A stretch of 21,227 nucleotides of DNA from Nitrospirota bacterium (GTDB lineage: Bacteria; UBA2233), in contig WOZJ01000066.1 of assembly GCA_011620345.1 (NCBI GenBank), forward strand, positions 62,001 to 83,227, read 5' to 3'. Numbering within the stretch: the first letter of the stretch is position 1; every line of letters starts with the position of its first letter. Shown one piece after another: positions 4,080-16,432 of the stretch. A program made the position numbers and the translations under genes. The notes under the pieces are model-generated. The model worked only from the letters and a program-made list of their open reading frames with translations. It made no database searches and had not been told where the DNA came from.

Positions 4080-5422
4080 ACCAAGAGCCCTTGGACCTCG
4101 CCCTTAGGGCTTCCCACGTGTTGACGATGAATGCATCCGGCAGGTGCCTGACACCCGGGTTTGTCGGCATCCGTGATGGAAGAATTGTATCCGTGGAGCC
4201 CTACAAGCAGGGCATGGAGGCTGCATGGAACCCGAAGCATTTCCTCGCGCTAGACCGCCATATCGTTTTTCCAGGGCTGATCAACGCGCACACGCACCTT
4301 GGGATGGGCTTTTTTCGCGGAATCGAAGACGACCTTCCTTTGGAGACATGGCTAAAACAACGGGTCTTTCCGCTGGAGGCCGCGCTCGTCACCGAAGAGC
4401 TCGTGTATGCGGCAAGCCTGCTTGGCATGGTTCAGATGCTGCTTTCTGGTACGACCACGTTCGTGGATATGTACTACTTCGAGGAAGCGGCCGCGCGTGC
4501 TGCGGAAAGGCTCGGGGTTCGGGCCTTTTTGGGCCCTGGCGTGCTGGACATGCCGACTCCAGGCGTCCCCGACGCTGAAACGGGCCTTCGAAGGCTCGAG
4601 GCGTTCATCGAGCGCTACTTGGGCCATCCGCGCATTACCCCTATTCTTGCCCCGCATGCTCCCTACACCTGCTCAGACAGGACGCTGAAGGCCTTAAGGG
4701 CCCTAAAGGAGCGTTTCGGCCTAAGGGCCACCATCCACGTCCAGGAAACCAGCGGCGAGCTTCAGGAAAGCCTGCGGCGTTTTGGCAAGACCCCGCTTGA
4801 GAGACTTGAATCGCTAGGGTTTTTGGACTCTAACGTCCTGTGTGCCCACATGGTATGGCTCGGGGCTGGGGATAGAGAAGTTCTTGAGCGTGCTAGACCA
4901 GGCGTGGCTCACTGTCCAAACAGCAACCTCAAGCTTGGGTCCGGGGTTTGCAATGTGGCAGAGCTTCGCGACATGGGGCTCCTTGTCGGCATCGGGACGG
5001 ACAGCGTGGCCAGCAACGACAGCCTTGATATGGTCCGCGAGATGAAGACGGCCGCGTTGCTCCAGAAGGCGCTCCATGCAGACCCAAGCCGGATGGGCGC
5101 CAAAGAAACGCTTGGCCTTGCCACGTCCGAGGCGGCCAAGGCGCTAGGGATGGGTGACCAGCTTGGATCTATAGAGGCGTGCAAGAGGGCGGACCTCGTT
5201 GCCGCAGAGATTAATACGGTACGGGACTTCCCCTGCCACGACCCCTACGCCCACCTTGTGTATACGCTTACGGGGAGCCACGTGTCTACGGTCATCCTCG
5301 CGGGTGAGGTGGCCGTTTTCGAAGGGCGCCTTGTGAACGATCCGACGGAAGAAGCGTTGGATACCTGGCAAGAGACCGCCTCGAGGGTAGGTAAGGAGCT
5401 AGAAAGGCTCAAAAAGGGCTAG
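4076..5422 (+). CDS. mtaD: Metal-dependent amidohydrolase, 5'-methylthioadenosine/S-adenosylhomocysteine deaminase family
   Basis: PGLINAHTH (HxH), DDLPL-x-x-WL, SGTTTFVDMY, APHAPYT, HVQET, AHCPNSNLKLGSG and GTDSVASNDSLD. ATGA overlap with the PNP stop. The exact substrate is inferred. Confidence 0.85.
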   Translation: MNQEPLDLALRASHVLTMNASGRCLTPGFVGIRDGRIVSVEPYKQGMEAAWNPKHFLALDRHIVFPGLINAHTHLGMGFFRGIEDDLPLETWLKQRVFPLEAALVTEELVYAASLLGMVQMLLSGTTTFVDMYYFEEAAARAAERLGVRAFLGPGVLDMPTPGVPDAETGLRRLEAFIERYLGHPRITPILAPHAPYTCSDRTLKALRALKERFGLRATIHVQETSGELQESLRRFGKTPLERLESLGFLDSNVLCAHMVWLGAGDREVLERARPGVAHCPNSNLKLGSGVCNVAELRDMGLLVGIGTDSVASNDSLDMVREMKTAALLQKALHADPSRMGAKETLGLATSEAAKALGMGDQLGSIEACKRADLVAAEINTVRDFPCHDPYAHLVYTLTGSHVSTVILAGEVAVFEGRLVNDPTEEALDTWQETASRVGKELERLKKG

Positions 5423-8370
5423 CTGGCGACGGATCCCCATTGCTTGAGGAGCTCCAATAAGCCTTTGATTGGCAAAGGCTTGCTAAAGACATACCCCTGC
5501 ACGCCAAAGCACGTTTGCGTCTTCAAAAAATCGAGCTGTTCGTTTGTCTCTACGCCTTCTGCGATCACTTTCAGGTTCAACGCCTGGGCAATTTGAATAA
5601 TTGCCTTGACGATAGCGGCAGACGATGAGTTATCGAGCATTTGGACGATGAAGGCCCTGTCAATCTTGATCGTATCGATGGGAAAACGGTGGATGTAGCT
5701 GAGCGAGGAGTAGTCCACGCCGAAATCGTCCAAGGCGATCCGCACGCCCATTGATTTGAGCGATTGAAGGACCTTGAGCGCGTACTCCAGGTTTTTCATG
5801 GCGGTAGATTCTGTGATCTCGATCTCGAGCTCGTGCGGATCGAGGTTCGTATGCGTTAGGGCTTCTTCGACGAGCCGAACGAGATTGGCGTCCATGAATT
5901 GCCTTGGCGAGAGGTTGATGGATACGTAGAGGTGGTTTAGGCCGGCTTCCTTCTTGATAGAGCGGAGGTTGGCCAACGATTCTTTGAGCACCCACTCGCC
6001 GATGTCGATGATCAGCCCGCTCTGTTCGGCTACGGGGATAAACTCTCCGGGAGAAATGATGCCGCCCTGCGTGGGAAGCCATCGAATGAGCGCTTCCATC
6101 CCGACGATCTTTTTCTCCTGGATGGCGACCTGAGGCTGGTAGAACAGCGCGAGCTCTTTTCCTTTCATGGCGGCCCGAAGCTTGTTTTCGAGAATGAGAA
6201 AATTCGCCATCCGCATCCCGAGGTCCGAGCTGAACCGCTGAGCGGTGTTGCCGCCCAACTCTTTGGCCCGTAACATCGCAAGTTCCGCGTTTTTAAGGAG
6301 CGTTTCCGAGTCCTTCCCGTCCGTCGGGAAAAGCGCAAAGCCTATGCTTACCGCGAGGTGCACCTCTTGTTCTCCGACGCGAAAAGGTTGGAAGAAGGCA
6401 TCCAAGACCTTCTTTACAACGACCTGGGCATCGTCCGGCTGCCTTAGGCCTGATAACACCAGGACGAACGTATCTTCGGGGAGCTTTGCAAGCGTGTCCG
6501 TAGGCCTCAATGATCCCTTGATGCGTTGTGCGACGGCATTGAGAAGGCCGCCGCCCGCATCAAACCCGAACACGTCCACGACGCGCTTGAACTTGTCGAT
6601 GTCCATATGGACGACGGCCGCGTAGCTCGAGGCCTTGAGCGCTTGGGTAAGCCTATCGAGCAGCAGGATGCGGTTTGGGAGCCCAGTCGTCGGGTCGTAG
6701 TTGAGCAGTTTTTGAATCTCTTCCTTGGCCTTCTTCTCCCGAGTCACGTCTCTCCACACATCGACTAAGAACCGCACCTGGCCCTGCTCGTCGAGCAGCG
6801 GGATTTTGTTCACGGCGTAGCAGCGCTGGACGCCATCCGTATGCAGAATTTCGGTTTCGTAGGCGATGGGGGTTTCGTTCTTTATGGCTCGGGAATCTGC
6901 GTACCTGGATTCCAAAAAGGCCGTTTCATAAAATGGCAGAACCAAGGCCAGATCCTCGTCGGTCTTTCTGTACCATTCGACGCCTTCGAGGCTGAAGCGC
7001 TCAGTCGCGGTTTTGTTGACCACGAGCCAGTGTGCCCGTTCATCTTTTAGGACGATGGGGTCAGGCAGGGCGTTCAGGAGCGTTTTGAGCCGATCCTCGC
7101 TTTCCTTGGAGGCCTTTTGTGCCTCCTGCTCCTTGAGTCTTTCGAGCGCTCCCTTTAGGGCGCCACGCATCATGGAGAAATTCTCCTCAAGCCTCCTTAG
7201 CTCCTCGATATGGCTTTTCGGACCGGCGGGCTCGAAGTCGGCGAGCAGCTCTTCAATAGGCTTGCTAGTCAGGTCGGAGAGCCTTTCGAGCGGTCGGCCC
7301 AGCATGTTCGCCGCCAAAGAGGACAACAGTATCCCGCCGAGCGCCATAAGCGTTCCGACCCCCATCCACAAGAGGAACACACGGTAGGCCTGGTTGCTGA
7401 AAGGAGCGTTGGGCATAAAAAGGATTAACGAAAGGCCTTCTTTGGTCTTGAGTGGTTTGCGAAGGGTGTACCAGGAGCTCTCCCACTGGAAGGAGGCTTT
7501 TTTGCCCATGGCCCTTAACGCGCTCTCGTTGGGGACGAGCATACACACGGCATTCTGGAGTGGCTTGAGCTTAAACGACCCTGCACCTTGCAGGCTTGGG
7601 GCCATGGGATCATCCGGCTTGAAGGACTCGAGTAAGACCTTGCCTAAGTCATTATCGAGCTGAAACTCGACCCCTTGCGCTTTAGCCTGAAGCAAAAGCT
7701 CCCGGGCTTCCGGGATGCTGCGTGGGTTCAGAAACTCCAAGCGATACTCGAGCTTCTCGGCCTCTGCCTCGAGCTGAGATTCCGCCCTCGTTTCGATCCC
7801 TTTGACCACGGCCCGAAGGTTTACGGTAGAGCCGATGCCTATCAGTAAGAGCCAAAAGAAGCACCCTCCGACGAAATAAATTTCGCTTAGCGTGTACCGA
7901 AGGGTCAGCGCGCTCTTTCTTTGGACCTTGGCTGGAAGGGTAAGGTACAAAAGGTCGGCTAGAGAGGCATTGAACACACCGTTGAGGATCCGCTTAAACG
8001 TGTAGGCCCAAACGAGCTCGGATATGGGAAACGGCCCTACGAGCAGCGATAGGAGCGAACCAAGCGTGAGCCAGTACAGGGCGGCCGGAATGATCAAGCT
8101 TCTCTGTAAGCGCTTTGCTATCATGCCGACGATGAGCGGCTCGAGCATGAAGGCGAAGAAATCCAGTGGTTGTCCAAAGTGGAACGCCAGGTAGGTGCCT
8201 GAAACGGCCCCTATCAGCGTTGCCGGCCAAAGCCCAAACAGCCGCAAGCCGATAAGGGCGGGAATACTGCCGAAAACGATTGTAACGGCCTTGAGCGGCA
8301 GGATGTCGATGGAGGCCAAGTTGCCGACAAGGCTAAGTCCGGTAAGCGCGATGAACAACGAGACCTGCAT
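5419..8370 (-). CDS. Membrane-bound signalling protein: multi-TM N-terminus, extracytoplasmic region, HAMP-like linker, PAS/PAC, degenerate GGDEF and EAL (probable c-di-GMP phosphodiesterase)
   Basis: Several hydrophobic segments in the first ~190 aa and another near aa 335-355. PAS region ends in WRDVT. GGDEF fold (YDPTTGLPNR, DIDKFK) has PEDTF at the active-site position. EAL domain has EALIRW, SINLS, EITE, DDFG, KID, EGVE and QGY. Its stop overlaps the mtaD stop (ctag, 5419..5422). Confidence 0.92.
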   Translation of the reverse strand: MQVSLFIALTGLSLVGNLASIDILPLKAVTIVFGSIPALIGLRLFGLWPATLIGAVSGTYLAFHFGQPLDFFAFMLEPLIVGMIAKRLQRSLIIPAALYWLTLGSLLSLLVGPFPISELVWAYTFKRILNGVFNASLADLLYLTLPAKVQRKSALTLRYTLSEIYFVGGCFFWLLLIGIGSTVNLRAVVKGIETRAESQLEAEAEKLEYRLEFLNPRSIPEARELLLQAKAQGVEFQLDNDLGKVLLESFKPDDPMAPSLQGAGSFKLKPLQNAVCMLVPNESALRAMGKKASFQWESSWYTLRKPLKTKEGLSLILFMPNAPFSNQAYRVFLLWMGVGTLMALGGILLSSLAANMLGRPLERLSDLTSKPIEELLADFEPAGPKSHIEELRRLEENFSMMRGALKGALERLKEQEAQKASKESEDRLKTLLNALPDPIVLKDERAHWLVVNKTATERFSLEGVEWYRKTDEDLALVLPFYETAFLESRYADSRAIKNETPIAYETEILHTDGVQRCYAVNKIPLLDEQGQVRFLVDVWRDVTREKKAKEEIQKLLNYDPTTGLPNRILLLDRLTQALKASSYAAVVHMDIDKFKRVVDVFGFDAGGGLLNAVAQRIKGSLRPTDTLAKLPEDTFVLVLSGLRQPDDAQVVVKKVLDAFFQPFRVGEQEVHLAVSIGFALFPTDGKDSETLLKNAELAMLRAKELGGNTAQRFSSDLGMRMANFLILENKLRAAMKGKELALFYQPQVAIQEKKIVGMEALIRWLPTQGGIISPGEFIPVAEQSGLIIDIGEWVLKESLANLRSIKKEAGLNHLYVSINLSPRQFMDANLVRLVEEALTHTNLDPHELEIEITESTAMKNLEYALKVLQSLKSMGVRIALDDFGVDYSSLSYIHRFPIDTIKIDRAFIVQMLDNSSSAAIVKAIIQIAQALNLKVIAEGVETNEQLDFLKTQTCFGVQGYVFSKPLPIKGLLELLKQWGSVAS

Positions 8371-8494
8371 GCGATACCCTTGTTAGCCGATTTGTTTTGC
8401 CGATTGCGTTTATCGTATCATACCGCCGGCAATGGGGCATCTCAGGATAGGCGTGCTAGAATATCACAATTTAAGAAAGCTACGAGGAGGGCGC

Positions 8495-9541
8495 ATGAAG
8501 AACGCCGTAAAACGTCGAGAAAGACGGTTTTTTTTCACTCTTGTCTTGTTGCTAGCAGGATACGGTGCGGGGTTTTGCGGCGATTTTACGGGGAACCCTC
8601 GGATGGAAGGTTTTGTCCGCATGATGACGGATACACAAGGGGCCGACCCAGAAGAGCTCCGCGGTATTCTTGAGCAGGCAAGGAAGAAGCAGAGTATCCT
8701 TCGCGCGATGGAGGCGCCGGCCGAGGCCAAGCCTTGGTGGGCATACAAGCCCATCCTGGTCAACGCACGAAACGTTCAAGAAGGCAGGGCATTCCTTAAA
8801 AGGCACGTTAGAGCGCTCAAGCGTGCAGAGTCTATTTACGGCGTACCGGGTGCGCTCATAACGGCCATATTAGGAGTAGAGACCAGGTATGGCAAGAACA
8901 TGGGCACCTTTCGCGTGCTGGATTCGCTGGCTACGCTTGCGTTTGATTACCCAAGGAGGGCGGATTTCTTCGCAAACGAGCTTAAGGAATTCTTCTTGAT
9001 GACTAAAGACGACGGGCTTGCCCCGCTTTCTTTAAAGGGATCGTACGCGGGGGCTATGGGCTACCCCCAGTTCATGCCGAGCAGCTTTCGGCGCTATGCC
9101 GTCGATTTCGACAAGGACGGGAAGAAAGACATCTGGAACAGCGTAGAGGATGCCATCGGCAGCGTCGGCAATTACCTGGCAAGCTTTGGGTACAACCCGA
9201 CGCAGCCGGTCTGCCTAAGGGCGGTTCCTGGTCCAAGCGAGAGCGCATTAAAAGACAAAGTGCTTGCAAATGGCGTGGAGCCTGCCTTTTCCTTTGTCAT
9301 GCTGAAGGAGGCAGGGTTTGAGTTCCAGCACGACGGGCTCGATGCGAACACAACGGGCGGGGTCTTCAGCCTGGAAGGGTTTGAAGGGCCCGAGTACTGG
9401 GTGGCCCTTCCCAACTTCTGGGTAATAACCCAATATAACAAAAGTCGGCTTTATGCGATGGCCGTGTTCGAGCTTGCCCGCCATATCCAGGGGACAAAAG
9501 GCTGGACAATCCCCATGCTATCTCAGCAAGACCCCCGATAA
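8495..9541 (+). CDS. mltB: Lytic murein transglycosylase B (SLT_2/GH103 family)
   Basis: AILGVETRYG (catalytic Glu), LATLAFDYPRR, GSYAGAMGYPQFMPSS, EF-hand-like DFDKDGKKD and ITQYNKSRLYAMAV. The start is placed at ATG 8495 because GAGGAGG lies just upstream and a signal peptide follows; the ORF track starts at 8432. Confidence 0.93.
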   Translation: MKNAVKRRERRFFFTLVLLLAGYGAGFCGDFTGNPRMEGFVRMMTDTQGADPEELRGILEQARKKQSILRAMEAPAEAKPWWAYKPILVNARNVQEGRAFLKRHVRALKRAESIYGVPGALITAILGVETRYGKNMGTFRVLDSLATLAFDYPRRADFFANELKEFFLMTKDDGLAPLSLKGSYAGAMGYPQFMPSSFRRYAVDFDKDGKKDIWNSVEDAIGSVGNYLASFGYNPTQPVCLRAVPGPSESALKDKVLANGVEPAFSFVMLKEAGFEFQHDGLDANTTGGVFSLEGFEGPEYWVALPNFWVITQYNKSRLYAMAVFELARHIQGTKGWTIPMLSQQDPR

Positions 9542-9572: not shown

Positions 9573-10229
9573 CTAAGGTCCAGAGGGCAGCATGGCGGCC
9601 TTGTCCGTATGGCAGGTCGCGCAAAGCTTCCCATTGCTTGCGCTTTCCCATAAAAGCGGCGTCTCGGTCGAACGAAGCTTGAAGGCGATCGTCTTGTCGT
9701 CCTTTGGAAGGCCGAGCTTTTTGGCCGTGATTTCGCGCCTTTCTTCCGTCAGCCCTTGCATAAGCGCCATGTTTGGGGCTGCAGGTATGTTCGTCTCTAC
9801 GGTCCGTGCGGGTCCGGTGATGCCCCATGCCGGCGAGTGGGGGTCGTGGCATGTGCCACAGGTGATCTTGCCGGAGGCATCCAAAGGAAACGCGTTTGCC
9901 CTTTTCTTTCTTGCCTGCTCGATTCCTGCCTTGGCCTCACGTGTCGGAAGGGTCAGGTGGCGCTTGGCACCGATATGCGGGCTTTCCCCGTGGCAGCCGA
10001 AACACGCCCTGAAAGGCGCGGGATGGAATCCGGAGAACTTCTCTTTTGGCATTTCCTCGGGTGTCGGCTCGAGGCTGTGGCAGACGTCACACTGCTCGCC
10101 CATAGGCCCACCGTGCGGGAAGGGGAGGTCTTTCCCGTCGTTCTGTGCAAGGCCTGCTTGAATATGAATAAGGCCAATCGTTAGAGCTCCTGCAATCAGG
10201 ACGCTGAGGCGGTAAGAGCGCATTCCCAT
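9573..10229 (-). CDS. Exported tetraheme c-type cytochrome
   Basis: Four CxxCH motifs (CDVCH, CFGCH, CGTCH, CATCH), including CGTCHDPH. Signal peptide ending near AGLA-Q. A GGAGGA RBS lies inside the end of the upstream gene. Confidence 0.88.
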   Translation of the reverse strand: MGMRSYRLSVLIAGALTIGLIHIQAGLAQNDGKDLPFPHGGPMGEQCDVCHSLEPTPEEMPKEKFSGFHPAPFRACFGCHGESPHIGAKRHLTLPTREAKAGIEQARKKRANAFPLDASGKITCGTCHDPHSPAWGITGPARTVETNIPAAPNMALMQGLTEERREITAKKLGLPKDDKTIAFKLRSTETPLLWESASNGKLCATCHTDKAAMLPSGP

Positions 10230-10232
10230 CGG

Positions 10233-10559
10233 CTATTCCTCCTGCGTAGAAGATCCGGTTCCGTTGTCGCCGTGGCAGAGTATGCAGCTTGCCTCACCGC
10301 GGCGCTCGACGACACCACGGACCCAACCCATATCCCAGCCCGTGAGAAACGCGCTATCATCGTCGCAATGGATGGCCCTGATAGGATGACAGGAAACGCA
10401 CTGCCGCCTTCTCCAGCCCGAAGGGTGTTCTTCTTGCGTAAGCCGTACTCCTTGAGGAGAGCCGGCGAGTGGGCCGTAGTCCTGGCATTGGTAGCCGTGG
10501 GCGAAAGAGGCGAGCGCTACAAAGACGCCCCCTAAAAGGACGAACGTTTTTGTTCGCAT
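10233..10559 (-). CDS. Small exported diheme c-type cytochrome
   Basis: Two CxxCH motifs (CVSCH, CILCH) and a signal peptide (MRTKTFVLLGGVFVALASFAHG). AAGGAG RBS upstream; 15 bp and 3 bp gaps to its neighbours. Confidence 0.85.
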   Translation of the reverse strand: MRTKTFVLLGGVFVALASFAHGYQCQDYGPLAGSPQGVRLTQEEHPSGWRRRQCVSCHPIRAIHCDDDSAFLTGWDMGWVRGVVERRGEASCILCHGDNGTGSSTQEE

Positions 10560-10574
10560 CGTCTTTTGCTCCTT

Positions 10575-11183
10575 TTAGCGCCGAAGCAGTTGCCTGTGAC
10601 AGCCAAGGCAGAAGTTTTGCCTGTGGCAGCTCGAGCATTTCATCGGGTTTGCCCTGGCTTCGATCGCGTGGTAGAAGAGATAATTTCCCTCGTGGACCTT
10701 GTTTTGCATCGTATCCCTGCGCATGTGGCAATCTACGCAGAACGACTGGGCATGGCAGAGCTGGCATTCCTCGCCGGAGGTCTGTGCAAGAATACGATGG
10801 TCTTTCTTGAAGCTCAACGTGTGCGTTTTCGGCTTGATCGCGGCCATGTTGTCTTTATGGCAGCTTGTGCACTTCAGGGGCCGCTTTGCCTTTCGTTCTT
10901 CGTTGTTATGGCATGCATGACAGGTCTCTTGGCCCGGTTTCAGGTAACGCGCTTCGATCTCGTCGTCAAGCTTTTCGTGCTGGCTTTCGAGCGTGGCGTT
11001 GAACGGGTGGCAGGAGATGCAGTTAAACCCATCTTTTTCGAGCAAGACGCGGTGCTTGCCGTGATCGAAGACGGAGGCCGCGGATTTAGGGGGGGCAGGG
11101 GGCTCTTCTTTGGCCATTCCGGAAAGGGCAACGCCAGCCAAGCCTGCCGCAAAGATTAAACTAAAAACGGGTATTCTTTTCAT
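10575..11183 (-). CDS. Exported heptaheme c-type cytochrome (c7/c3-like N-terminal module plus a duplicated diheme module)
   Basis: Seven CxxCH motifs (CISCH, CHACH, CTSCH, CQLCH, CVDCH, CSSCH, CLGCH). F-x-H-x-x-H motif (FDHGKH) typical of class III cytochromes. Signal peptide and AAGGA RBS. Confidence 0.9.
   Translation of the reverse strand: MKRIPVFSLIFAAGLAGVALSGMAKEEPPAPPKSAASVFDHGKHRVLLEKDGFNCISCHPFNATLESQHEKLDDEIEARYLKPGQETCHACHNNEERKAKRPLKCTSCHKDNMAAIKPKTHTLSFKKDHRILAQTSGEECQLCHAQSFCVDCHMRRDTMQNKVHEGNYLFYHAIEARANPMKCSSCHRQNFCLGCHRQLLRR
10596..10823 (-). repeat. Protein-level duplication of a 33-aa diheme unit within the heptaheme cytochrome (copies at 10725..10823 and 10596..10694)
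   Basis: HTLSFKKDHRILAQTSGEECQLCHAQSFCVDCH and HEGNYLFYHAIEARANPMKCSSCHRQNFCLGCH share identical spacing: H-x7-H-x3-A-x6-CxxCH-x-Q-x-F-CxxCH. Confidence 0.85.
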
Positions 11184-11200
11184 GGCAAGGTCCTTTTGCC

Positions 11201-12556
11201 CTAGAATTTGGTGTCGAAGTTGTAGAAGGCCATCAGGCCGCCCCGGATGTCGTCATGGTAAAAGTCGTTCGAGTTGGCCTCGAAGAAGCCCTGGAGCTTG
11301 CAGTCTCGAAACAAAAGGTAGCTGACCATCGTGCGGAAGTTGAAGGCCTGATCGCTCTGGTTGGTGGTTTTGTCGTAATGGACCATGTTAAACCAGTTTT
11401 CCCACTCGAGCCTTTGGGTGAGCTTTAGGCTATACTCTGCTCTGGGGCCTACGGCTTCCCCGCCGTAGCTCTTCAAGTAGAACATGCCTAAAGAAAGGGC
11501 ATGTTCGTTCCTTTCTCCGAACGTCTTGCGAAGTCCAGGCTCGAACGAGTAGCCTTTTGTCCGTTCGCCCGGGAACGTCTCGTAGGTCTGGTAGGCGAAG
11601 TCTGTATAAACGCTCAAGCCAGGGTTTAAGGCGTAATCAAACCCAACCTTGGATTGCCAAAGCGAGCTTGCCGAAAACAGCCCGAAGATGAGGTCGTCCA
11701 TCGTGTTCAGCGTGAACATGTCTGTCGTGTAGGCCTCTCGCTCCCACAGGTTGGTGTCGTAGTAGGTGCCCTCGAGCTTCATGCTGAACTTCTGCGTCAG
11801 GAACATCTGCGTTCCAAAAACGACGTCCTCGAAGCCCCCTTGAGAGTTGTTGTAGACCATCTCTTGGTAAAGGAGGCTATCGATCGGGAAGCTTAGCGGC
11901 TTTTGCCAGGTGAGGTGCAAGAGCTCGTCGTGCTCGTCTGGATAATCTAGGTCGCGCTCCATGTAGCCTACCTCGCCCGAAATTTGGAAAGGCAGGCTGA
12001 ACTTTGCCGAAATGCCCCAGATTTTTTCGTCAATGTTCTCGTCTTGGTTGTACCATTCCGAAAATGTCTCGAGGTCTCTGGGTTTGCCGTAGAAGAAGTT
12101 GAGCGCAAGGCTCTTCGTAATCTCGAGGTCGCCCTGAATGGCATCGGCCAGGAAGACGTTCCCCGCCTTGTGGATAAACTGCCTTCCAAGGACCAGGCTC
12201 AACCTGTCCGCGATCCTTGGGATCTCTACGTAGCCCAAGAAGACGTCTACCTGGCCGCTTTCGTCCGGATAGCCGTTGTAGGCAAAATCGTCGCGGTAGC
12301 GAAAGTAGGCTACTGCCGAAGCGCCCTGAGGCAGGTCCTCGAGCGTGAAGCGGCTGTATAGGCTAAAGGGCATCTCGTTGCCGCCGAAGCGGTGCCCCCC
12401 GTAGACGAGCGAGCCCTTATGGTAGCGGTTCTTCCTTCCCTCGAAAAGCGCCTCGAAGTTCCCGGAGAGCGTTTCGGCAATCGCCCGGGTTTCTTGGACG
12501 AAGAAGACCCCTACAAGGCAGGCCGTGGCTAGCGCTTTGAGTGTCGTTCCCCTCAT
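11201..12556 (-). CDS. Outer-membrane beta-barrel (porin-like) protein of a multiheme cytochrome cluster
   Basis: Signal peptide ending AIA-E and no later hydrophobic helix. Many aromatic-rich alternating strands (e.g. KVGFDYAL, LSVYTDFAYQ, FRTMVSYLL). C-terminus GGLMAFYNFDTKF ends in Phe. Flanked by cytochrome genes. Confidence 0.8.
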   Translation of the reverse strand: MRGTTLKALATACLVGVFFVQETRAIAETLSGNFEALFEGRKNRYHKGSLVYGGHRFGGNEMPFSLYSRFTLEDLPQGASAVAYFRYRDDFAYNGYPDESGQVDVFLGYVEIPRIADRLSLVLGRQFIHKAGNVFLADAIQGDLEITKSLALNFFYGKPRDLETFSEWYNQDENIDEKIWGISAKFSLPFQISGEVGYMERDLDYPDEHDELLHLTWQKPLSFPIDSLLYQEMVYNNSQGGFEDVVFGTQMFLTQKFSMKLEGTYYDTNLWEREAYTTDMFTLNTMDDLIFGLFSASSLWQSKVGFDYALNPGLSVYTDFAYQTYETFPGERTKGYSFEPGLRKTFGERNEHALSLGMFYLKSYGGEAVGPRAEYSLKLTQRLEWENWFNMVHYDKTTNQSDQAFNFRTMVSYLLFRDCKLQGFFEANSNDFYHDDIRGGLMAFYNFDTKF

Positions 12557-12583
12557 TGCCGACCCCTGCTGTTTTTTTGGTGG

Positions 12584-13237
12584 TTACATGCCAGGAGGCG
12601 CAAAGCTCTTCGTGTGCTCGTGACAAAGCACGCAGTTCGAGGTGAAGTGGGCCTCGCCCGTCCCATCCCGGCGGTAATGGTTCGTTTGCGTATGGCATAC
12701 CTCGCAAAGCCCTTGTCCCGGCTCTTTGCCGTTCTGGCCTCCGGATGCGCTTGGGAGCTCCACGAAGCTGTCGTCCGCCTGTCCGTCCTCGTTAAGGAAG
12801 CGAATCTCTACGGGTGTGCCGTCGAGCGTCGTCAGCAGATCCCGGACCATCGAGAGGTTGGGCGTTCCGTGTGGGTTGTGGCACGCGGCGCAGTTGGCCG
12901 TTCGCTCTTCTGGCGTCCCTAACGTGGCCCAGAGTGCGGGCGGGTGGCCATGGGGCTGGCCCGTGGGCCAGGTTTCGTTGTGGCAGGTCTCGCAGTTTGC
13001 CTTGGTCATGTGGCCCGTGCCAAACCCGGTCCTTGCCCGCGTATGGCACATGAAGCAGGCCGTGCCGTGGCCCTGGAAGGTTCTTGCACGTTCTACGTAC
13101 TCCGAGTGGCAAAACTCGCAGTCATCCGGGGCCTGGAAGTACTCCGGGGGAGCGGTGTATTTCTTCGCTCCAAGGAGCGCGACGCTCGCGATCAAGACCA
13201 TCCCGGCCCCTAGACTCAACAGCCTTCTTCTTTGCAT
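12584..13237 (-). CDS. Exported hexaheme c-type cytochrome
   Basis: Six CxxCH motifs (CEFCH, CFMCH, CETCH, CAACH, CEVCH, CVLCH). The start is placed at ATG 13237 (MQRRRLLSLGAG...) because GGAGGAG lies just upstream and a signal/anchor segment follows; the ORF track starts at 13276. Confidence 0.88.
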   Translation of the reverse strand: MQRRRLLSLGAGMVLIASVALLGAKKYTAPPEYFQAPDDCEFCHSEYVERARTFQGHGTACFMCHTRARTGFGTGHMTKANCETCHNETWPTGQPHGHPPALWATLGTPEERTANCAACHNPHGTPNLSMVRDLLTTLDGTPVEIRFLNEDGQADDSFVELPSASGGQNGKEPGQGLCEVCHTQTNHYRRDGTGEAHFTSNCVLCHEHTKSFAPPGM

Positions 13238-13278
13238 GGGCTCCTCCCTCGATGTTAGCTTTCCCTCTAACCCCATGC

Positions 13279-13308
13279 ACTATACTCGATCATTTTTGTG
13301 ATTTGCAA
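13279..13308 (-). promoter_or_regulatory. Candidate sigma70-type promoter for the cytochrome-porin operon
   Basis: The minus strand reads TTGCAA (13308..13303), 18 nt, TATAGT (13284..13279) in an AT-rich patch about 40 nt upstream of ATG 13237. Confidence 0.55.
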
Positions 13309-13398: not shown

Positions 13399-14448
13399 CT
13401 AGGCCTTGAGGCTTTTCATGTCGATGACGAAACGGTACTTGACATCGCTCTTTAGCATTCGCTCGTAGGCCTCGTTGATCGCCTGGATCGGAATCAACTC
13501 GATGTCCGAAACAATGCCATGTTTGGCGCAGAAATCGAGCATTTCTTGCGTTTCTTGAATACCGCCGATTAGCGACCCGGCAATCTGGCGCCGCTTAAAA
13601 ACCAGGCTGAACACGTCGGGCGAAGGGTGGGGTTCGGACGGCGCGCCCACGAGTACCAGCGTGCCATCTCGCTTGAGGAGGTTTAGGTAATCGTCTAGCC
13701 GGTGTGGGGCGGACACGGTATTCAGCATGAAATGGAAGCTGTTCTTGTGGGCCGCCATTTCGTTTTGGTTCTTGGAAACGACCACCTCGTCTGCGCCAAG
13801 ACGGCGAGCGTCTTCAGCCTTGCCTGGCGAGGTCGTGAACAGCACGACGTGGGCGCCCATCGCATGGGCAAGCTTTATCGCCATATGGCCCAAGCCACCC
13901 AAGCCTACGACCCCCACCTTCTTGCCAGGGCCGATGCTCCAGTGCCGAAGCGGGGAGTAGGTGGTGATGCCGGCGCAAACGAGCGGGGCCACCGCCGCCA
14001 AGTTCTCGGTATGGGCAACCTTGAGCACGAAGGATTCCTTGACGACGATCGTTTCGGAGTAGCCGCCGAAGGTGTTCTCGCTCCCCGGCCCACGCCCGTT
14101 GTAGGTCGCCACGAAGCCTTCCTCGCAGTACTGCTCTAGCCCGTTGAGGCAGGATTCGCAGCGCCCGCAGCTATCTACCATGCAACCGACGGCCGCGATG
14201 TCGCCCTCCTTAAATTTGTTTGCCTTGCTTCCGACGGCCACCACGCGCCCTACTATCTCGTGGCCAGGTACGCAGGGATAGATCGTATTCTTCCATTCAT
14301 CGCGAGCGGTGTGGAGGTCCGAATGGCACACGCCGCAAAAGAGTACATCGATCTGCACGTCTTCCGGTCCTGGGCTACGCCGCTTGACCTGAAAAGGTCC
14401 CAAGGGGTTTGTCGGGCCGTGCGTAGCGTAGGCTTTGGCGTTGATCAT
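13399..14448 (-). CDS. yahK: Zn-dependent NADP(H) alcohol dehydrogenase / aldehyde reductase (cinnamyl-ADH/YahK family)
   Basis: CGVCHSD, PGHEIVG, structural-Zn CGRCESC-x7-C, CAGITTYSPL, GLGGLG followed by FTTS (NADP type) and C-terminal DVKYRFVID. GGAGG RBS. Confidence 0.92.
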   Translation of the reverse strand: MINAKAYATHGPTNPLGPFQVKRRSPGPEDVQIDVLFCGVCHSDLHTARDEWKNTIYPCVPGHEIVGRVVAVGSKANKFKEGDIAAVGCMVDSCGRCESCLNGLEQYCEEGFVATYNGRGPGSENTFGGYSETIVVKESFVLKVAHTENLAAVAPLVCAGITTYSPLRHWSIGPGKKVGVVGLGGLGHMAIKLAHAMGAHVVLFTTSPGKAEDARRLGADEVVVSKNQNEMAAHKNSFHFMLNTVSAPHRLDDYLNLLKRDGTLVLVGAPSEPHPSPDVFSLVFKRRQIAGSLIGGIQETQEMLDFCAKHGIVSDIELIPIQAINEAYERMLKSDVKYRFVIDMKSLKA

Positions 14449-15775: not shown

Positions 15776-16432
15776 TTAAGGCCTGCAACTGCCGCAGGGG
15801 GCAAACCCTAGCTCTAGCGCCCTTTTGCGGGTCTCGAACACGATGCGTTTATCCTGATCAAGGCGTTTTGCATACACGCAGCTTGGCCTGTGAAACACCC
15901 TAGACGATAGGTTGCCAGCGTAGAAGCGCTCGTAGGCGAAATCCCTCCAGAGTCCCTTTTTGGCCTCCCTCGCCTCGGCCTCGAATGCCTTAAGCCTCTC
16001 AATCCCTGGGAACGGGTATTTGACGAAGGCGTAGCCGTAGCCTTCCTTGACGATGAGGTCGTTGACGCACCGGCCGTCCGGAAGGTAGACAAACGCGAGC
16101 GTTCTCGTGTAGGCATCCTTTTCGACGCGCTCGAGCCTTAGCGTCTTGCCCTTGATCGTTTTCCGTAAGAACGTGGAGGACTCCTTGCCGAAACGTTGGA
16201 CCTTTCGCCTAGGATCTTTCGTCTCGGGAGTATCCACGCCGATGAGCCTGATTCGCTCGATCTTTTCGCCCGTCCAGACGTCCAACGTGTCGCCGTCGAT
16301 CACCTTGATGCAGTAAGGAGGCTCGATGCGAGCGCAACCGAGGACCAAGACAACGGCGACAACCAATAACCGGGCCCAACCGAGGGCCTTCAGGGCGCTG
16401 TGTACGGCGTTCGTCCGTCCTGCATAGGGCAT
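15776..16432 (-). CDS. Thermonuclease (SNase family) with a C-terminal Ada-type metal-binding domain; probable lipoprotein
   Basis: VIDGDT, RIRLIGVDTPE, D-x-Y-x-R-x-LAFV and AREAKKGLW. C-terminal FHRPSC...F...A...GFAPCGSCRP. Lipobox-like VLGC after a hydrophobic stretch. The start codon is uncertain. Confidence 0.88.
   Translation of the reverse strand: MPYAGRTNAVHSALKALGWARLLVVAVVLVLGCARIEPPYCIKVIDGDTLDVWTGEKIERIRLIGVDTPETKDPRRKVQRFGKESSTFLRKTIKGKTLRLERVEKDAYTRTLAFVYLPDGRCVNDLIVKEGYGYAFVKYPFPGIERLKAFEAEAREAKKGLWRDFAYERFYAGNLSSRVFHRPSCVYAKRLDQDKRIVFETRKRALELGFAPCGSCRP

Follow-up and report, generated by a model that had tools for sequence, protein, structure and literature searches.

Porin-cytochrome (Pcc) gene clusters are the closest described counterparts of the locus reported here. 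According to the available part of the 2014 paper that describes them (PMC4245776), these clusters encode a porin-like protein with 18-22 predicted membrane strands, always beside a periplasmic cytochrome with 5-14 hemes; most also hold an outer-membrane cytochrome, and clusters of Anaeromyxobacter and Kuenenia were accepted without one. The OmbB-OmaB-OmcB layout was published as a barrel, an 8-heme cytochrome, and a 12-heme lipoprotein, and Thermovibrio ammonificans and Desulfurobacterium thermolithotrophum make up Pcc group III (PMC4245776). The window analysed here, a 21,227-nucleotide stretch (positions 62,001 to 83,227 of contig WOZJ01000066.1, assembly GCA_011620345.1) of a Nitrospirota bacterium assigned to the lineage UBA2233, carries five adjoining genes (g1 to g5) for four multiheme c-type cytochromes and one predicted beta-barrel.

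The products of the five genes most likely form an electron wire through the outer membrane, distantly related to the Geobacter-type conduits and reduced in comparison with them. We assign a probability of about 0.72 to the reading that they form one operon encoding a Pcc-type (Geobacter-type, non-Mtr) trans-outer-membrane electron conduit, a reading carried by the gene content, the modelled fold of the barrel, the homology to Pcc proteins, and the conserved linkage of barrel and cytochrome genes. Such a conduit would be a candidate respiratory outlet, or inlet, for a phylum-level lineage known from two small genomes (placeholder phylum UBA2233, 1.8-1.89 Mb, in the accessible text of PMC11382960). 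The features, with lengths in amino acids (aa) and nucleotides (nt), are as follows.

12584..13276, minus strand: g1, 6-heme c-type cytochrome; 230 aa as the longest open reading frame (ORF), 6 CxxCH motifs, no lipobox Cys
11201..12556, minus strand: g2, predicted outer-membrane barrel; 451 aa, 0 CxxCH, C-terminus ...NFDTKF
10575..11183, minus strand: g3, 7-heme cytochrome, putative barrel partner (the gene in the OmaB position); 202 aa, 7 CxxCH
10233..10559, minus strand: g4, small 2-heme cytochrome with two extra Cys (C25, C65) and a predicted Sec signal; 108 aa, 2 CxxCH
9573..10229, minus strand: g5, 4-heme cytochrome with a predicted Sec signal ending AGLA; 218 aa, 4 CxxCH
13308..13279, minus strand: sigma-70-like promoter pattern TTGCAA-18 nt-TATAGT, upstream of g1

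The successive gaps from g1 to g5 are 27, 17, 15, and 3 base pairs (bp), the start codon of g5 lying 3 bp beyond the stop of g4, and the CxxCH motifs total 19 (6+0+7+2+4). Only 19 ORFs (of at least 60 aa) in the whole 1.8-Mb genome hold at least two CxxCH motifs, and four of these stand side by side here, so the clustering goes beyond chance. All five proteins have a basic start followed by a hydrophobic stretch, from which export signals were read by eye. An earlier note on this DNA, made from the sequence alone, had listed five co-oriented genes with these gaps, 19 CxxCH motifs, a Phe-terminated protein, and N-terminal export signals on every product; all of this was reproduced, with the minus strand, left unstated there, now added.

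Affiliation with Pcc systems

Sequence comparison places the barrel and g3 in the Pcc family in its broad sense, as a divergent and reduced variant, neither a new class nor an Mtr system; the assignment follows from homology to Thermovibrio-type clusters and from an hhalign match to a clade with the OmbB-OmaB-OmcB layout. In that match the clade of the window barrel (12 sequences) aligned over its full length with a clade of barrels with 5-14-heme partners (14 sequences) at 99.9% (E 5.7e-35, 387 columns, 13% identity). The second clade includes a locus that encodes a 398-aa barrel, a 224-aa protein with 8 hemes, and a 732-aa lipoprotein with 12, and it also has members in a genus that carries the ExtKL selenoprotein above cut-off. 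Matches to ExtKL above its cut-off of 250 bits occur in a single genome (G086) among the 401 sampled, at C271:2837-4048 and C153:2664-3773, with scores of 458 and 364 bits; both contain a single in-frame TGA, which a gene for the selenoprotein form should have.

With OmbB-OmaB-OmcB of Geobacter the locus shares a small barrel (18-22 strands in the accessible text of PMC4245776, 22 here) and a multiheme gene directly downstream of it (5-14 hemes there, 7 here). It differs in having no 12-heme OmcB-like surface lipoprotein, in a partner with 7 hemes instead of 8, and in three extra small cytochromes with 6, 2, and 4 hemes. The size of the barrel, which the earlier note had called nearer to Geobacter-type barrels, is indeed so and reflects the homology detected with hhalign. 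The same note's designation of a "distinct conduit" has to be withdrawn for the core of the system, since the barrel and its 7-heme partner fit the Pcc family as described in 2014 and their strand and heme numbers fall within its ranges (PMC4245776, in the part available). What is distinct is the accessory set of 2-, 4-, and 6-heme proteins together with the absence of a lipoprotein or large surface cytochrome.

The loci of the Desulfurobacteriaceae (Pcc group III) resemble the window in a barrel 22-24% identical to g2 (E 2e-12), in a 7-heme partner 36-40% identical to g3 (pairwise value 37%, E 1e-35) in the same position, and in a second 7-heme protein whose C-terminal half resembles g5. A lipoprotein Cys marks their 7-heme partner, unlike g3; their clusters further encode an inner-membrane-type cytochrome of 364 aa and a 3-heme protein, and they are without homologues of g1 and g4 at BLAST E<=1e-3. 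The 364-aa neighbour has six CxxCH, one CX3CH, and one CX5CH motif with 24 His, and Theam_0871 of the Thermovibrio pcc cluster is described in the same terms of motifs and His (PMC4245776, in part); the Thermovibrio-type loci found here thus correspond to the published Thermovibrio pcc cluster.

A clade of metagenome contigs (L027-L067) has homologues of all five window proteins, in the same order except for g1. In contrast to the window, its clusters are usually preceded by a decaheme lipoprotein of the OmcA/MtrC family, their 7-heme and 6-heme proteins are lipoproteins, and the 6-heme gene stands last or is fused. The EET1-EET4 clusters of Acidobacteriota and Verrucomicrobiota, which in the accessible part of a 2026 preprint (10.64898/2026.05.27.727921) comprise a syntenic porin and multiheme cytochromes, one of them with an MtrC-like cytochrome, may overlap this clade.

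Shewanella MtrCAB and the MtoAB/PioAB systems have in common with the proposed conduit a cytochrome threaded through a barrel, and MtrB matches g2 structurally as a large barrel; MtrB is longer, however (about 650-700 aa and 26 strands, against 451 aa and 22 strands). No protein of the cluster approaches the MtrA/DmsE family (TIGR03508; best scores 19 and 23.5 bits against a cut-off of 192.2, with 38.7 the best in the genome) or the MtrC/OmcA family (TIGR03507; 24.8 and 23.7 bits against 209.3), and a search of the five window proteins against NCBIfam gave nothing near any cut-off. The reading of the locus as a non-Mtr cluster of porin and multiheme proteins, with no decaheme MtrA/DmsE-type subunit in the cluster, which had been made without database searches, therefore stands. 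Fused porin-cytochromes of the Cyc2 type differ in carrying a heme motif within the barrel protein, whereas g2 has no CxxCH. The OetABI and D. ferrophilus clusters were considered and do not fit, going by their descriptions in the portions available of PMC10553843 and PMC9769857. No account of a 7+2+4+6 module was found in the literature searched, most subscription journals being outside its reach; nor, within the same scope, was any description found of a Pcc-type barrel that has an MtrC/OmcA cytochrome for a partner, a subject that the 2026 preprint may cover in part.

The barrel, its partner, and the conserved module

With a 77-sequence alignment, AlphaFold2 models g2 (pLDDT 89.6, pTM 0.83) as a signal helix followed by 22 strands across residues 29-450, in keeping with the barrel that the earlier note had read from the 451-aa sequence. 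Foldseek matches are to porins, AlgE, and usher pores. A second, Foldseek-independent structure search is headed by the 22-strand barrels of TonB-dependent receptors (2hdf_A and 4epa_A, Z 18.9; rmsd 3.5-4.4 over about 360 aligned residues), with MtrB (6r2q_B) at rank 15 (Z 15.9). The matched TonB-dependent receptor chains have 549-809 residues, of which the barrel parts alone align with g2. TonB-dependent transporters hold an N-terminal plug within their 22-strand barrel, whereas g2 has none: its strands begin at residue 29, directly after the signal peptide, leaving no room for such a domain, and a Pfam scan of g2 gave no Plug or TonB_dep_Rec match. On this modelling g2 can confidently be described as an empty, plug-less 22-strand outer-membrane beta-barrel.

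By sequence the family is poorly represented in domain collections. The single Pfam match of g2 is a sub-threshold one to OMP_b-brl (21.3 bits against a cut-off of 28.7); across 77 members of the barrel family no Pfam family was assigned, three having weak OMP_b-brl matches and none reaching the cut-off of a transport-porin family. A search of PDB sequences with the barrel profile returned nothing below E 0.1. A profile search among 1.84 billion representatives found 110 relatives at E<=1e-3, 57 of them at E<=1e-10, and a word-indexed homologue search recovered, for g2, only g2 itself and one relative (83%) and, for g3, five close relatives.

Three relatives carry a cytochrome fused to the N-terminus of the barrel: P0025 (12 CxxCH), P0043, and the ORF at L072:1075-2733 (4 CxxCH in each of the last two). 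The fused domains are built of repeated diheme units and resemble the 13-17-heme proteins encoded upstream of the barrels in L071 and L086; they are unlike g1, g3, g4, and g5.

The partner g3 matches Pfam Cytochrome_C7 (29.4 bits, cut-off 24.8), and an alignment of 31 sequences shows all 7 CxxCH motifs and 5 further His to be invariant. Modelling of the barrel with a cytochrome, which had been suggested earlier as a check, gave for g2 (residues 27-451) and g3 (residues 30-202) a complex score of 0.79 against 0.00 for the best control, with contact agreement between runs of at least 63% and a partner pLDDT of at least 62. Among 157 solved complexes 116 attain the mark for this score, and among 215 mismatched pairs 2 do, rates that are rough here because our own alignments were used. 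The interface comprises alternate, inward-facing residues of many strands and residues 119-192 of g3; the C-terminal half of g3 is also the part conserved across all partner cytochromes in BLAST comparisons over the loci of the 401-genome sample. The model supports a plugging of the barrel lumen by the C-terminal four-heme half of g3, as by MtrA in MtrB.

Barrels of this family are frequent: a profile search at E<=1e-5 detects them in 70 genomes of a broad bacterial sample of 401, and a homologous cytochrome nearly always accompanies them. Public genomes yielded barrel relatives in one metagenome-assembled genome (MAG) of the same genus, 2 unclassified MAGs, 10 MAGs of Desulfurobacteriaceae, and 1 further complete genome; in 13 of these 14 loci a 7-heme g3 homologue of about 200 aa lies directly downstream, and in the fourteenth the contig ends at the barrel. 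The 28 non-self loci from the 401-genome sample give a similar picture: 27 have a g3-related multiheme cytochrome (5-14 CxxCH) beside the barrel, related by BLAST mostly through the C-terminal half of g3, and the remaining one is a contig end. In a metagenome scan that started from six aligned sequences of the closest clade outside the window's own, and whose 41 loci are therefore biased to one clade, multiheme genes lie within 4 kb of the barrel in 28 of 31 loci. Homologues of the 451-aa protein are thus linked to cytochrome genes, as the conduit proposed in the earlier note would need.

The same-genus genome keeps all five genes, their heme numbers unchanged (6, 0, 7, 2, 4), with identities of 79, 86, 73, 70, and 75% for g1 to g5; the other genomes drawn in the search for relatives (n=40 and n=400) have only domain-level kinship with the window. 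Among 55 loci compared by BLAST, homologues of g3 occur in 49, of g5 in 35, of g4 in 30, and of g1 in 18. Those of g4 keep its position after the 7-heme gene, and those of g1 stand after the 4-heme gene or are fused to the end of 14-20-heme proteins. In metagenome loci with enough flank a decaheme protein of about 750 aa comes first, followed by the barrel and the 7-heme, 2-heme, and 4-heme proteins; the last place is taken by a 6-heme protein or by a 14-20-heme protein that has the same 6-heme domain at its end. Since homologues of g1, g3, g4, and g5 surround related barrels, all five window genes belong to one conserved module, found in many metagenome contigs; in the window g1 has moved ahead of the barrel.

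A quick maximum-likelihood tree computed for 71 barrels joins the window pair, on a long branch, to the metagenome clade L027-L067 as its sister group (SH-aLRT 97) and places the Desulfurobacteriaceae barrels next outside, with weak support (81). The decaheme proteins of the metagenome relatives have lipoprotein signals (17 ORFs listed), and one that was tested (L042:2575-4851) is a full-length member of the OmcA/MtrC family (TIGR03507, 347 bits against a cut-off of 209). Among 31 aligned g3 homologues, 26 have a lipoprotein Cys ending the signal peptide; it is missing from the four sequences that belong to the window's lineage and from a single further one. All six g1 homologues inspected (L041, L050, L053, L055, L060, and L037) have such a Cys, and the window g1 does not. 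As cap and anchors are present in the relatives and absent from the window lineage, this lineage has lost an MtrC-type cap and both lipid anchors, those of g3 and g1.

It is possible, though we regard it as doubtful, that a 22-strand barrel with an invariable complement of four small cytochromes (7+2+4+6 hemes) defines this so far unnamed branch, and that most of its members are natural hybrids of a Pcc barrel and an MtrC/OmcA decaheme cap, from which the UBA2233-type lineage has lost the cap and both anchors. It would then be left with a 19-heme wire of soluble parts assembling around the barrel, a minimal form of a widespread branch, working perhaps without a dedicated surface cytochrome or in the uptake direction. 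In the relatives a barrel of non-Mtr type is combined with a surface cytochrome of the Shewanella type. The available part of PMC12133095 views Mtr and Pcc systems as separate inventions; MtrC/OmcA cytochromes beside Pcc-type barrels bear on that view and merit a closer look.

Working model and direction of electron flow

The small cytochromes are generic by family. By their Pfam matches, g1, g3, and g5 fall in broad multiheme families: g1 matches Cytochrom_c3_2 (30.7 bits, cut-off 25), Cytochrome_C7, and Paired_CXXCH_1, and g5 matches Paired_CXXCH_1 (32 bits), Cytochrome_C7, and Cytochrom_c3_2; for g4 no Pfam family was found above its cut-off. Weak similarities raise the idea that g4 and g5 might be the two halves of one split cytochrome. 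His residues beyond the CxxCH motifs number 8 in g1, 8 in g3, 3 in g4, and 6 in g5 (for 6, 7, 2, and 4 hemes), so that by these counts all 19 hemes could be bis-His ligated.

We infer a working model in which the five genes are co-transcribed and the roles and sides of g1, g4, and g5 are as follows. The plug-less 22-strand barrel g2 would sit in the outer membrane with g3 as its obligate partner, the C-terminal four-heme half of g3 in the lumen and its N-terminal c7-like three-heme part protruding. With 2 and 4 hemes, g4 and g5, placed in the periplasm because they have plain Sec signals, would act as soluble relays to g3 from inner-membrane quinol-oxidising cytochromes encoded elsewhere. The 6-heme g1, whose counterparts in relatives are lipoproteins and probably surface-located, would dock to one end of the complex. 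The 19 hemes, possibly all bis-His, would thus form a chain for electrons across the outer membrane. Such a compact version, with five proteins and 19 hemes, offers small parts that would suit structural studies and the rebuilding of a non-Mtr conduit in a heterologous host.

Other elements of the pathway are encoded elsewhere in the genome (1.8 Mb, estimated 96.8% complete), which has cytochrome c maturation genes, BamA, and two secretins. A second, barrel-less cytochrome cluster at about 172-183 kb of contig C50 (L021) encodes a 12-heme NapC/NirT-like protein, a 2-heme protein, a fusion of an 11-heme domain with cytochrome b561 (686 aa), a 13-heme protein (476 aa), a separate cytochrome b561, a histidine kinase, and a response regulator; its cytochromes are candidate inner-membrane, quinol-oxidising entry points for the conduit. 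Contig C42 (L022:3432-7668) holds, in one minus-strand row, a Rieske protein, a cytochrome b6-like (ExtP-like) protein, a 7-heme ExtM-like protein, a 3-heme protein, and a split-Soret-like diheme protein, and this Rieske/cytochrome b/ExtM-like set is likewise a candidate for quinol oxidation at the inner membrane. The ExtM-like and ExtP-like proteins score below their cut-offs (167 against 800 and 193 against 290 bits). An HAO-like octaheme protein and a NiFe hydrogenase are also present. No heme-copper oxidase or DsrA was found in the 96.8%-complete genome, and of its two molybdoenzymes neither attains the NarG or NapA cut-off. These absences, together with the hydrogenase, fit an anaerobe in need of an electron outlet, and outward flow is favoured, to Fe(III)/Mn(IV) minerals, sulfur, humics, or a partner cell, although the sequence itself does not decide the direction; the caution voiced on this point from the DNA alone remains apt.

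Inward flow, in which electrons from Fe(II), reduced minerals, a cathode-like surface, or a syntrophic partner would pass into periplasmic or inner-membrane cytochromes in the manner of MtoAB/PioAB, is unlikely, if deserving of some weight. MtoAB and PioAB are uptake systems with no surface cytochrome, and the cluster, unlike most of its closest relatives, has no decaheme lipoprotein of the MtrC/OmcA type; cytochrome bd oxidase and the HAO-like protein are possible sinks. Mtr clusters without a surface cytochrome are typical of Fe(II) oxidisers (PMC4245776, in the part available). The lack of a heme-copper oxidase and of enzymes reaching the NarG/NapA cut-offs argues the other way, a strong lithotrophic terminal sink not being evident, as does the hydrogenase, which offers a donor route. 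The capacity of all the hemes for bis-His ligation also tells against uptake, bis-His hemes being usual in low-potential reductive chains.

Should the conduit serve the surface reduction of elemental sulfur, polysulfide, selenium/tellurium oxyanions, or humics and not of metal oxides, our preferred reading would change in the acceptor alone. Thermovibrio and Desulfurobacterium, which have related clusters, are sulfur reducers (PMC4245776, in part), and the genome's ExtM- and ExtP-like proteins, both below their cut-offs, belong by resemblance to NCBIfam families of a selenite/tellurite reduction operon. The cluster itself has nothing substrate-specific and no sulfur- or selenium-handling gene adjoins it, which makes this version improbable. 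That the barrel is an ordinary porin or substrate channel, with purely periplasmic electron carriers sharing its operon, can be given hardly any credence: the plain Sec-type signals on all four cytochromes and the weak matches of g2 to generic outer-membrane protein families would suit it, but in 27 of the 28 loci sampled the barrel has a homologous multiheme cytochrome as its neighbour, some barrels are fused to one, no family member exceeds a transport-porin Pfam cut-off, and g3 fills the lumen in the complex model.

Several observations weigh against a Pcc-type conduit, or at least against its details. None of the four window cytochromes has a lipoprotein signal (no Cys ends their signal peptides), and a large surface cytochrome is neither in the cluster nor evident elsewhere in the genome, so that an exit for electrons at the barrel mouth and a way for g1 to reach the surface are not evident. 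The link to Geobacter comes from other genomes of the same layout and from the 2014 grouping, not from named Geobacter sequences. The barrel model needs a deep alignment, g2 being unfolded with 4 sequences (pLDDT 38.9), and the passing score of its complex with g3, obtained with our own alignments, may partly reflect the model's memory of MtrAB-like structures. The presence of cytochrome bd oxidase means that the organism is not strictly without an O2 reductase, which weakens the argument on direction. Finally, no RNA data were found for the stretch (DNA data are listed in 10 studies).

Gene starts, promoter pattern, and neighbouring genes

The promoter-like motif reported in the earlier note is present upstream of g1, with 9 of 12 consensus matches, but enrichment was not seen: 5 kb of sequence contain 1 such site, where shuffled versions average 1.5. 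The site is weak by itself and amounts to no more than chance expectation. It lies 35-40 nt upstream of the second ATG of g1 (13237), which is immediately preceded by GAGGGAGGAG as a ribosome-binding site. The first ATG (13276) is only 2 nt past the -10-like hexamer. For both reasons, the preceding GAGGGAGGAG and the closeness of ATG 13276 to that hexamer, g1 probably starts at ATG 13237 (M14, MQRRRLL...), giving a protein of 217 aa.

Plus-strand ORFs across the cluster (for example 9592-10161 and 10566-11159) were set aside, the minus-strand genes being the ones with homologues and families. A gene for a zinc alcohol dehydrogenase (13399-14448, likewise on the minus strand) lies 122 bp upstream of the longest g1 ORF, and such a gene is also found upstream of the operon in the same-genus genome (L002). 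At the other end a gene for an SLT_2 lytic transglycosylase (8432-9541, plus strand) converges on g5 with a gap of 31 bp, and a PAS-GGDEF-EAL protein is encoded nearby (5419-8370, minus strand). Elsewhere in the window, a 218-aa ORF (15776-16432, minus strand) joins a staphylococcal-nuclease domain to an Ada Zn-binding domain, an uncommon combination.

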